64,000 bases of DNA from a virus (taxonomy: Duplodnaviria; Caudoviricetes), in the IMG/VR virus record IMGVR_UViG_3300025410_000009; one strand, 5' to 3'. Positions 39,042 through 40,603 of this stretch are shown here, piece after piece. Under the pieces are notes generated by a model that searched no databases, was not told the DNA's origin, and worked only from the letters and a program-made list of their open reading frames with translations. The translations under genes were made by a program, and so were the position numbers. The first letter of the stretch is position 1, and each line of letters opens with the position of its first letter.

Positions 39042-39339
39042 TGGTGCTCCGAGCCAGACTCGAACCGGCACGCCTTTCGGCGAGAGATTTTCTTACCACT
39101 ATAGCTTTCGCTACCTTTACAGTTTTGTGGTCTGGACTATACCTTCATCATAGCATCAATGCCTTAGATGCCCGCCGTCTAGTCTCTACACGTTCAAAAG
39201 TATTTCTACTTAGGCTTCGCTCGGTATTAGCATTTTACAGCCTTCACCGAATTTGACGGGTTCTACTCCTATCGTTTCCAATAGGGCACTCAAATTTTAC
39301 TCTCAAGTCTCTTGTGTCTACCTATTTCACCATCAGAGC
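39042..39339 (-). tRNA. trnL: tRNA-Leu(UAA) split by a group I intron (exons 39339-39305 and 39091-39042)
   Basis: Joined exons: GCTCTGA/TCGGAGC acceptor, AGAGA-CTTAAAA-TCTCT anticodon arm, long variable arm GCC-GAAA-GGC, GCCGG-TTCGAGT-CTGGC T arm, A73, CCA. Confidence 0.93.
39092..39304 (-). mobile_element. Group I intron (IC3-like, 213 nt, no ORF)
   Basis: P1 ACTT/GAGT with U-G at the 5' splice site, P3 CCCGTC/GGCGGG, P4 TTCGGT/ACCGAG, GTGTAGAGACTAGACG and GAAGGTATAGTCC core (P7), terminal G. Confidence 0.93.
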
Positions 39340-39346
39340 AATTAAA

Positions 39347-39423
39347 TGGTGCGCCCACTAGGACTTGAACCTAGGACCAATGGATTATGAGTCCACTGCT
39401 CTGACCAACTGAGCTATAGGCGC
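39347..39423 (-). tRNA. tRNA with CAU anticodon, most likely tRNA-Ile2
   Basis: Full cloverleaf, GTGGA-CTCATAA-TCCAT, C4-G69 and C5-G68 pairs, encoded CCA; lacks initiator features. Confidence 0.88.
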
Positions 39424-39435
39424 TACTAAGTGTTA

Positions 39436-39464
39436 ATTATAGCACTAGGTGTGCGTGGTGTCAA
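39436..39464 (-). promoter_or_regulatory. Consensus sigma70 promoter for the tRNA operon
   Basis: TTGACA-17 nt-TATAAT, 12 nt upstream of the tRNA 5' end. Confidence 0.9.
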
Positions 39465-40603
39465 GTTCTTTCTGCTCGAGTGCCACCAGATTTGGGCACA
39501 CTGGGTGCAGCAGTTTTACCAGGTCGACTTATTCTGTCAGCACCTAAACTGGCTCTAGCTGCCTTGGGCTGTGCAACAGGTGCACTGGGTACTGCAGCTG
39601 ATTTGGCAACACTGCCTTTGCTACCGCCCCCGCCATCTGGCAACAAACGCACTTGTGGCATGATTTCGCCTTCGGGTGCATATATGTACATGGTTGCAAT
39701 GTGTATCTTGCCCTTCATTGCATCATAATCTTTAAAGTATTGCGATGATTCAGACTTAACATCCATCAACAAGATACCTTCAAAATTTGAATAGGCTTTG
39801 TAATTTTCGTAACCGGTTCTCAATTGCTCATCAATAATAGCAGCAGGATCGCCACTGGCCAGTGCACGAGCATAGTTTTTAGAGTCAACATAATTAAATG
39901 TTTTGGCAGCTATGCTAGTGGTCAAGACCTTGACCTTCTTGGGATCAACTTTGGGAAGAATATCATAACACCAAGTTTGTGCATTGATACGGTCTGGCAA
40001 TTCAGTCAAGCCAGTAGCAACCATGATGTCGCTGGCCACACCAGCAAGATCCATTTTGGCCTTGCGTGGATTAATCCAGCGCCCGCCCTTGATCGCCGAA
40101 GTTTTAACTTCAATGGCACGTTTACCCACCATGATGTCGCCACCACCAGCAAGACGCCCGCTCCACTGAATTTTGGGACTCATCACAGCCAAGGCAACTT
40201 CGCCAGGACCCACACCCTGGCTTACCAGCACAGTGGTCAATATTTTAAATAATGCCTTGGCAAATTCGCTATCGTCCACTAGAGACAAAAATGTTTGCGG
40301 GCTACCACTGAGTAATTTGTTGACATTGACAATGCCAGTGGGGAATTTTTTTAGGAACGCATCTTTGTCTTCAACAGGAAAATCCATGCTGACTATGACT
40401 CGAGCAATTTCGTGAACAAATCTGCTGCCGTCGGGATCGCGTGACACCACAGAAGAAATACGCTCTTCAATATTGCCGGCCTTGAGCGTTTTGAGCACTT
40501 TTTGTAGCAGGCCCTCATCGTCGGTGTTTTTAACCAAATCAATAACTTGTTTTTTGGTTACGGGATCTTCAAATAGATCAATTAGTTTGCGTATGTCAGT
40601 CAT
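39461..40603 (-). CDS. Restriction-endonuclease-fold (PD-(D/E)XK) protein, putative internal protein
   Basis: GVGPGEVAL...GGGDIMVGKRAIEVKT; N-terminus MTDIRKLIDLFE. Confidence 0.55.
   Translation of the reverse strand: MTDIRKLIDLFEDPVTKKQVIDLVKNTDDEGLLQKVLKTLKAGNIEERISSVVSRDPDGSRFVHEIARVIVSMDFPVEDKDAFLKKFPTGIVNVNKLLSGSPQTFLSLVDDSEFAKALFKILTTVLVSQGVGPGEVALAVMSPKIQWSGRLAGGGDIMVGKRAIEVKTSAIKGGRWINPRKAKMDLAGVASDIMVATGLTELPDRINAQTWCYDILPKVDPKKVKVLTTSIAAKTFNYVDSKNYARALASGDPAAIIDEQLRTGYENYKAYSNFEGILLMDVKSESSQYFKDYDAMKGKIHIATMYIYAPEGEIMPQVRLLPDGGGGSKGSVAKSAAVPSAPVAQPKAARASLGADRISRPGKTAAPSVPKSGGTRAERT

Follow-up and report, generated by a model that had tools for sequence, protein, structure and literature searches.

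A split tRNA-Leu(UAA) gene in a jumbo phage genome

The 64-kb stretch of viral DNA analyzed here (hereinafter, the window) carries on its minus strand a tRNA-Leu(UAA) gene that is cut in the anticodon by a group I intron. When ARAGORN is run with introns allowed, it places tRNA-Leu(taa) at c[39042,39339] and, following position 35, an intron of 213 nt (junction gactt-intron-aaaat). Joining the two exons (39339-39305 and 39091-39042) yields a class II tRNA-Leu(UAA) of 85 nt; these are exactly the coordinates that an earlier note on this DNA, made from the sequence alone, had proposed. In the ARAGORN fold of the joined exons, a 7-bp acceptor stem, a 5-bp anticodon stem with the loop CUUAAAA, a variable arm of 4 bp with a GAAA loop, a 5-bp T stem, A73 and an encoded CCA make up the complete class II cloverleaf with the CU-UAA-AA loop drawn in that note. 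The features of a bacterial class II tRNA-Leu, namely the long variable arm, the discriminator A73 and the UAA anticodon, are all present. Moreover, in an alignment of 32 distinct phage sequences that encompasses 82 base pairs, including those of the cloverleaf and of the P3/P7 pseudoknot of the intron, the tRNA stems are 85-100% paired, with compensatory changes in every stem. Default ARAGORN and the Rfam tRNA model are both blind to the split gene and report only the adjacent tRNA(CAU), as anticipated by the suggestion that standard annotation would miss it.

Given the usual modification of U34, a UAA anticodon should read both UUA and UUG under the wobble rules, and these two codons account for 12% and 39%, respectively, of the leucine codons in the open reading frames (ORFs) of the window, 51% together. 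The description of the product as a UUA-decoding tRNA hence stands with respect to UUA and is too narrow in naming this codon alone.

The window encodes a terminase, a tail sheath protein, a UvsX-type recombinase, a gp32-like single-stranded DNA-binding protein and a ribonucleotide reductase, which bears out the phage origin assumed from the outset. The closest relatives of the terminase are those of the jumbo phages PA5oct (54% identity), Sinorhizobium phage Phosso (50%) and Atu_ph07 (49.5%), and no phage in GenBank is close to the window at the DNA level. The 380-aa protein encoded upstream of the tRNA genes lies on a 239-kb contig. The genome that carries the split gene, with a contig of at least 239 kb, is that of a jumbo myovirus from lake metagenomes.

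Because introns of the same type are common in bacterial genomes of many phyla, one might ask whether bacterial DNA, for example the trnL gene of a host, was mis-joined into a phage contig. This is extremely improbable. DNA of the window is found in many freshwater metagenomes, and DNA contigs from independent lake samples span both splice junctions with 0 differences: on one side they connect the intron with the phage gene at 38700, on the other with tRNA(CAU) and the upstream phage gene. A separate IMG/VR fragment (L244), 99.5% identical to the window over 4 kb that include both tRNAs, has the same junctions, and the nearest relatives of the intron all reside on viral contigs, within large tRNA arrays of the phage type. 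Given that both the independent contigs and L244 carry the intron-bearing gene, it is not an assembly artefact, and the locus is a genuine phage locus. Within the population of the phage itself, represented by DNA runs at 97% identity, no intronless joint was found.

Structure and conservation of the intron and its surroundings

The intron occupies positions 39304-39092 (213 nt; numbered from 39304 as nt 1; Table 1). A scan of the entire window against all 4227 Rfam families matched RF00028 (Intron_gpI) to positions 39308-39117 (53.6 bits, E-value 8.5e-11, model positions 1-253), above the gathering score of 50, so that the covariance model agrees with the initial assignment to group I. The individual elements listed in the earlier note, that is, P1 with a U-G wobble, a guide sequence with the AUUU/AAAU pairing, P3, P4, P7 and a terminal G, are all present and are backed by the comparison of homologs. 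In P1, the exon sequence ACUU pairs with nt 14-17 (GAGU), with a U·G pair at the splice site (93% paired in the 32 phage copies), and P10 forms between nt 11-13 (UUU) and the AAA that opens the 3' exon (90%); the internal guide sequence (IGS) is UUUGAGU in 22 of the 32 homologs and AUUGAGC in 7.

P4 (nt 55-59/80-84) is 100% paired across the phage copies, P5 (nt 63-65/74-76) 83%, P6 (nt 85-87/113-115) 99% and P6b (nt 94-107) 88%, and the junctions of the P4-P6 domain are near-invariant. P7 is likewise 100% paired, and its last pair alternates among A-U, U-A and C-G. P9.0 is paired in 97% and P9 in 99% of the cases, all four P9 pairs show compensatory changes, and L9 is GAAA in 29 of the 32 copies. 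In the P8 internal loop, the motif (C/U)CUAA(G/A)...UAUG(G/A) is dominant among phages; this loop resembles the 11-nt receptor for GAAA tetraloops and, by analogy with the Azoarcus structure, presumably is such a receptor.

Over all 82 pairs, 95.4% of the cells form standard pairs, compared to 33-40% in controls in which the 3' partners were slid by 1-3 columns, and double compensatory changes occur at 51 pairs, compared to 17-30 in these controls. Every helix from P2 to P9 carries such changes. When bacterial copies are included in a wider alignment of 81 sequences (32 from phages and 49 from bacteria, six of the latter cyanobacterial), 93.4% of the cells remain paired. The unconstrained minimum free energy (MFE) fold of the intron alone recovers P2, P3, P4, P5, P6b, P8, P9.0 and P9 (z = -2.6; 1 of 200 shuffled sequences folds as well). 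This pattern of conservation and covariation is the expected outcome of selection for a catalytically active ribozyme and a functional tRNA.

The intron also displays the features of subgroup IC3, namely a plain 3-bp P5 hairpin without a P5abc extension, P2, both P9.0 and P9, GAAA in L2 and L9, and a receptor-like loop in P8; by every sequence-level criterion tested, the element belongs to the IC3 Leu.3Ug family. There is no sense-strand ORF in the 213 nt, and a 77-aa antisense ORF has no Pfam match. A search of the intron and of both neighboring genes revealed no homing endonuclease gene.

Table 1. Features of the split tRNA-Leu(UAA) locus, in window coordinates; "copies" are the 32 aligned phage sequences unless stated otherwise
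Feature	Position	Strand	Sequence and evidence
Gene for conserved 380-aa protein, upstream of the tRNA pair	39461-40603	-	172 homologs, 45-67% identity, on contigs of up to 366 kb
Sigma-70 promoter	39436..39464	-	TTGACA, 17 nt, TATAAT; TG before -10; 12/12 hexamer matches; ~12 nt upstream of the tRNA pair
tRNA(CAU), uninterrupted	39347..39423	-	ARAGORN; RF00005, 74.3 bits; 7 nt upstream of tRNA-Leu
tRNA-Leu(UAA) 5' exon, 35 nt	39305..39339	-	Ends ...GACUU, last U is the wobble base U34; ARAGORN with introns
Group I intron, IC3-type architecture, no ORF	39092..39304	-	RF00028; covariation-backed P1-P10 model; MFE fold; aligned homologs
IGS UUUGAGU, nt 11-17	39288..39294	-	Pairing strand of P1 and P10
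P2 hairpin, nt 20-37, 7 bp	39268..39285	-	GAAA L2 (31/32 copies); 7/7 pairs compensatory
P3 5' strand CCCGUC, nt 45-50	39255..39260	-	Pairs with nt 129-134; 100% paired, 4/6 pairs compensatory; followed by J3/4 AAA
P4-P5-P6 domain	39190..39250	-	P4 5 bp, J4/5 GAA, P5 3 bp, J5/4 AAU, P6 3 bp, P6b with GAAA loop
P7 5' strand GACUA (nt 121-125), J7/3 GAC, P3 3' strand GGCGGG	39171..39184	-	Pseudoknotted catalytic core
P8, nt 135-159	39146..39170	-	P8 99%, P8b 83% paired, compensatory changes; internal loop UCUAAG...UAUGA
P7 3' strand UAGUC, nt 166-170	39135..39139	-	Preceded by J8/7 AAGGUA
P9.0 ACCAC/GUGGU (nt 174-178/206-210) around P9 UAGC-GAAA-GCUA (nt 192-203)	39095..39131	-	Covariation
Terminal (omega) G, nt 213	39092..39092	-	G in 32/32 phage and 49/49 bacterial homologs
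tRNA-Leu(UAA) 3' exon, 50 nt	39042..39091	-	AAAA, anticodon stem, variable arm, T arm, acceptor, A73, CCA; ARAGORN
J3/4 AAA			32/32 copies
J4/5 GAA			30/32 copies
J6/7 GUAGA			31/32 copies
J7/3 GAC			32/32 copies
J8/7 AAGGUA			24/32 copies

No terminator-like site was found between the sigma-70 promoter that precedes the tRNA pair and the genes downstream. The tRNA(CAU) is not initiator-like (it has a G1-C72 pair and an anticodon stem without the GGG/CCC run) and could be either an elongator tRNA-Met or a lysidine-dependent tRNA-Ile2. The pairing of tRNA(CAU) with tRNA-Leu(UAA) recurs in the distant jumbo phages LPKP23 of Klebsiella and DAC19 of Bacteroides. Directly 3' of the split gene starts a weakly GNAT-like gene (a sub-threshold match). 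The 380-aa upstream protein has no match in Pfam or PHROG. It was considered as a candidate free-standing homing endonuclease and rejected, given the lack of such matches and the 172 homologs, which better fit a conserved phage gene than a sporadic endonuclease; judging by these homologs, it is a conserved jumbo phage gene.

Relatives in phages and bacteria

A BLAST search of the phages in GenBank identified a homologous split tRNA-Leu(UAA) gene in Agrobacterium phage Atu_ph07 (L001, 1494-1855; MF403008.1, about 112,890-113,251), with a 278-nt intron at the same site. The gene is unannotated, and a 38-aa 'hypothetical protein' coding sequence (CDS; AUZ94936.1) overlaps its 3' end. The Atu_ph07 terminase aligns as two segments that fall under separate CDS, a hint of a further intervening element in this genome. 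The 735-kb uncultured phage LR756501 also contains the entire split gene, with a 205-nt intron and without annotation. In a third large phage, LR756511 (L369, 595,163 bp; LR756511.1 408700-411200, minus 470-1256), whose record carries no annotation, tRNA-Leu(UAA) is split between U34 and A35 by a 700-nt intron that has a core of the same family and holds an ORF for an HNH endonuclease (PF01844, 26.4 bits); endonuclease-driven homing is therefore available to the intron family, even though the window copy is ORF-less. Finally, the core (~75% identical) was detected between two 'capsid protein' CDS, the halves of one capsid gene, in Pelagibacter phage HTVC120P (L003, ~1464-1654) and in the uncultured marine podovirus KT997847 (L368, ~1173-1358), and thus the same intron lineage occurs in both tRNA and protein genes of phages.

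A sample of IMG/VR viral contigs was collected with one exact 17-nt core motif, which has at least 120 matches there. Among the 120 matches listed, 36 lie within tRNA-Leu(UAA) genes that ARAGORN splits at the same site, and another 13, miscalled as Tyr(ata) or Phe, are tRNA-Leu(UAA) as well, with the boundary GACUU|...G|AAAAUC, for a total of 49/120. About 24 further listed matches fall within other split tRNA calls, with Arg-UCU the commonest (L059, L096 and L101) and with Lys (L034, L058), Asn (L072), Thr (L093), Ala (L053) and Met/CAU (L056) also represented, the isotype calls for several of these loci being uncurated and unreliable; about 47 of the listed matches are in no tRNA call and presumably reside in protein genes.

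The same motif is common in bacterial genomes; a sample of bacterial genome contigs comprised 121 matches (L124-L243 among them), 51 of which are trnL(UAA) introns from Pseudomonadota, Acidobacteriota, Cyanobacteriota, Bacteroidota and other groups. Introns of the Leu.3Ug type in trnL(UAA) are frequent outside cyanobacteria, in Burkholderia, Paraburkholderia, Caulobacteraceae, Sphingomonadales, Acidobacteriota, Bacteroidota and Vulcanimicrobiota; the occurrence of this type in many bacterial phyla beyond cyanobacteria is known (Williams 2020, bioRxiv 10.1101/2020.01.27.920355).

In a quick maximum-likelihood tree built from the 210 intron columns of this short alignment, 28 of the 32 phage copies form one cluster, with support of 86 in the Shimodaira-Hasegawa-like approximate likelihood-ratio test (SH-aLRT), together with a single contig from a metagenome-assembled genome (MAG) labeled Bacteroidota. 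The latter contig (L236) may represent a prophage or a piece of phage DNA binned in error. A cyanobacterial clade and a Bacteroidota clade group with the phage cluster (SH-aLRT 91), and the label 'viral' changes 5 times on the tree, compared to 25 changes expected by chance. The nearest relative of the window intron is L062 (93% identity). Judging from this tree, the intron likely belongs to a mostly phage-resident lineage.

Uninterrupted alleles of the gene are abundant, too, and the survey of related phages proposed at the outset recovered both states, the intron-bearing one in Atu_ph07 and LR756501 and the intronless one in L325 and L329. When the joined anticodon arm was used as a probe, at least 120 viral contigs proved to carry an intronless tRNA-Leu(UAA). 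In the two best of the alleles listed, L325 and L329, 82 of 85 nucleotides are identical to the joined exons of the window, and the two halves of the BLAST match abut exactly at the site of the missing 213 nt; both contigs also have a protein gene in common with the window, at ~69% nucleotide identity. Likewise, where Klebsiella jumbo phages and Bacteroides phages have a tRNA-Met/tRNA-Leu(UAA) pair, the BLAST alignments to it end exactly at 39305, the last base of the 5' exon. The uninterrupted alleles and these alignment ends therefore indicate that the exon boundaries are right and that what is essentially one tRNA gene circulates among phages both with and without the intron.

The genomic context of the split gene is variable. 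Close relatives of the intron occupy differing positions in large phage tRNA arrays, a search for related loci via the upstream 380-aa gene returned only a fragment of the same phage, and the relatives that were found through this gene (57-67% identity) have a lone tRNA-Met or no tRNA downstream, so that the tRNA pair is not syntenic there. The differing positions in the arrays and the absence of tRNA-Leu in these relatives therefore imply that the split gene moves as a cassette.

The insertion CUU/intron/AAAA is that of the classical cyanobacterial and plastid trnL intron, as the earlier note had pointed out, and defines type Leu.3Ug of subgroup IC3 in a survey of 81,000 genomes that covered bacterial and archaeal assemblies only (Williams 2020, bioRxiv 10.1101/2020.01.27.920355). 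The likeness to the cyanobacterial and plastid introns extends from the insertion site to U-1, the omega G and the P1-P9.0 architecture, and with cyanobacterial copies also to an alignable core (J6/7-P7-J7/3, J8/7 and the P9 GAAA hairpin), six of these copies fitting the same structural model. The window intron, in contrast, resides in a phage genome and in a mostly viral cluster, is 213 nt long versus 220-312 nt in the cyanobacterial copies sampled, and has the IGS UUUGAGU instead of A(A/C)UGAGC. The cyanobacterial trnL intron was reportedly described by Kuhsel et al. in 1990.

With the Azoarcus intron, the window intron presumably shares the bracing scheme, with GAAA tetraloops capping P2 and P9 and, in P8, an internal loop that resembles a receptor. 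Likened by description, both are compact ORF-less IC3 ribozymes of ~200 nt in a tRNA anticodon loop, although the tRNA and the insertion position differ (Ile2.5Ug versus Leu.3Ug; PMC13168695). The classical group I introns of tailed phages (T4 td, nrdB and nrdD, SPO1 DNA polymerase, Twort, cyanophage psbA), in contrast, split protein genes, and many of them contain homing endonuclease genes, whereas the window intron is in a tRNA gene and has no ORF. According to the review by Hausner et al. (PMC3984707), all phage introns known up to 2014 were in protein-coding genes, despite the many tRNA genes of phages.

Introns in phage tRNA genes were also reported from the Lak megaphages. Excerpts of Devoto et al. 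(10.1101/356790) call the tRNA introns of these phages enigmatic and mention a test against Rfam, without naming a class, guess that such introns may be common in large phages and note their prediction in a 595-kb phage genome. Like the window intron, the Lak introns interrupt tRNA genes in phages of very large size and escape the tRNA finders designed for bacteria; in these excerpts they are in Phe, Gly, Thr and Tyr tRNAs and are assigned to no class, whereas the window intron is a clear group I ribozyme. A full-text literature search, with subscription journals outside its coverage, turned up no paper that describes a phage tRNA gene with a group I intron. The locus is nonetheless less novel than first implied: the same intron is present at the same site, unannotated, in Atu_ph07, LR756501, LR756511 and dozens of IMG/VR contigs. 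The setting, a phage tRNA gene, is unusual, the mechanism is conventional, and the element is abundant in public phage data.

Splicing, persistence and spread

Very probably, then, the locus encodes a functional tRNA-Leu(UAA) of a jumbo phage, and its gene is cut between U34 and A35 by a compact group I intron that has no ORF, is homologous to the bacterial and plastid trnL(UAA) intron (Leu.3Ug, IC3) and most likely is a selfish or nearly neutral passenger. One can read directly from the DNA the promoter, the two exons, the full ribozyme fold, the U·G pair, the omega G and the potential for P10, and from these we infer each step at the RNA level. Starting at the sigma-70 promoter, the host RNA polymerase would transcribe tRNA(CAU) and the tRNA-Leu precursor and would probably continue into the downstream genes. 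The intron would fold into the P3-P9 core, braced by the GAAA tetraloops of L2 and L9, and its guide sequence would pair with the exon ACUU, placing the U·G pair at the splice site. Free guanosine bound in P7 would then attack the 5' splice site, with cleavage after U34, after which the terminal G would take the same pocket, P10 would align the 3' exon, and the exons would be ligated. RNase P and 3' trimming would free the 85-nt tRNA with its encoded CCA, which is predicted to decode UUA and UUG, half of the leucine codons of the phage. The intron may persist because it splices cleanly, and it may spread among phage tRNA arrays by recombination of the whole locus or with help from endonuclease-bearing relatives.

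Several observations weigh against this scenario. Four lake metatranscriptomes contain contigs of the unspliced form from a relative, ~96% identical to the gene. Two metatranscriptome joints do skip exactly 39092-39304, but their flanks differ from the tRNA of the window; these joints probably come from intronless trnL genes of other organisms and are not counted as spliced product. No RNA run matched the phage itself. The pairs of P1 and P10 are conserved, yet without covariation, and no endonuclease gene that would point to a mode of spread was detected in the intron or the flanking genes. Furthermore, the RF00028 score is barely above the gathering threshold, and the model fails entirely on the homologs from Atu_ph07 and LR756501; there is no match on the clear homologs L001, L002 and L003 even at an E-value of 0.01. 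The latter result is a failure of sensitivity of the model, not evidence against homology, and helps explain why phage tRNA introns go unannotated. The RF00028 seed contains no bacterial sequences (Williams 2020, bioRxiv 10.1101/2020.01.27.920355).

The unspliced contigs as the only form seen in the RNA libraries, the marginal Rfam score and the short P5, of 3 bp and with 83% pairing, would also fit an intron that is real but no longer self-splices efficiently, either because it needs a protein cofactor from the host or the phage or because the gene is an inactive remnant. We consider this quite unlikely. All core helices and junctions are intact and under covariation, and the two exons still form a perfect cloverleaf, every stem of which shows compensatory changes. 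A contig from an RNA library does not tell carry-over of DNA, precursor and excised intron apart. In addition, related compact IC3 tRNA introns, those of Anabaena and Azoarcus, self-splice in vitro according to work cited in PMC3984707.

A different question is whether the intron is kept because it benefits the phage rather than as a mere passenger. It might destroy the target of homing endonucleases with which competitors attack tRNA genes, hide the anticodon loop from anticodon nucleases of the host until late in infection, or time the supply of tRNA-Leu. The residence of 28 of the 32 phage copies in one cluster apart from most bacterial copies suggests a long stay in phages, the intron is strongly conserved despite having no ORF, and tRNA clusters of phages are known battlegrounds, as illustrated by SegB homing (excerpts of PMC2330249) and by cleavage of tRNA-Tyr by Septu (excerpts of PMC13096335). 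Against this, the intronless alleles in other phage tRNA arrays, 82/85 identical, indicate that the intron is dispensable, no gene in the window ties it to defense or counter-defense, and the support for the phage cluster is moderate (SH-aLRT 86 in a quick tree of 210 columns). Conservation of the ribozyme would be expected regardless, because a non-splicing intron would kill the tRNA. A benefit to the phage is unlikely. We likewise deem it improbable that a phage-resident, compact, ORF-less IC3 lineage is actively maintained in jumbo phage tRNA genes (chiefly Leu-UAA, with Arg, Lys, Asn, Thr and others as well) as a device of counter-defense or competition that acts through the split anticodon loop. 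The idea of protection or timing, for which the odds seem equally slim, draws solely on the clustering of the phage copies and is weakened by the near-identical intronless alleles.

Atu_ph07 growing on Agrobacterium C58 is a culturable system that carries a homologous split gene. The Anabaena trnL intron underlies the permuted intron-exon methods for making circular RNA, and the diverse, shorter natural relatives (196-213 nt) could be useful starting material for such tools. With regard to phage biology, the tRNA complements of large phages are under-counted, given that default tRNA finders and the Rfam group I model miss split genes, and the existence of a sizeable, mostly phage-specific cluster of tRNA introns raises the question of intron movement between the tRNA genes of bacteria and those of phages.

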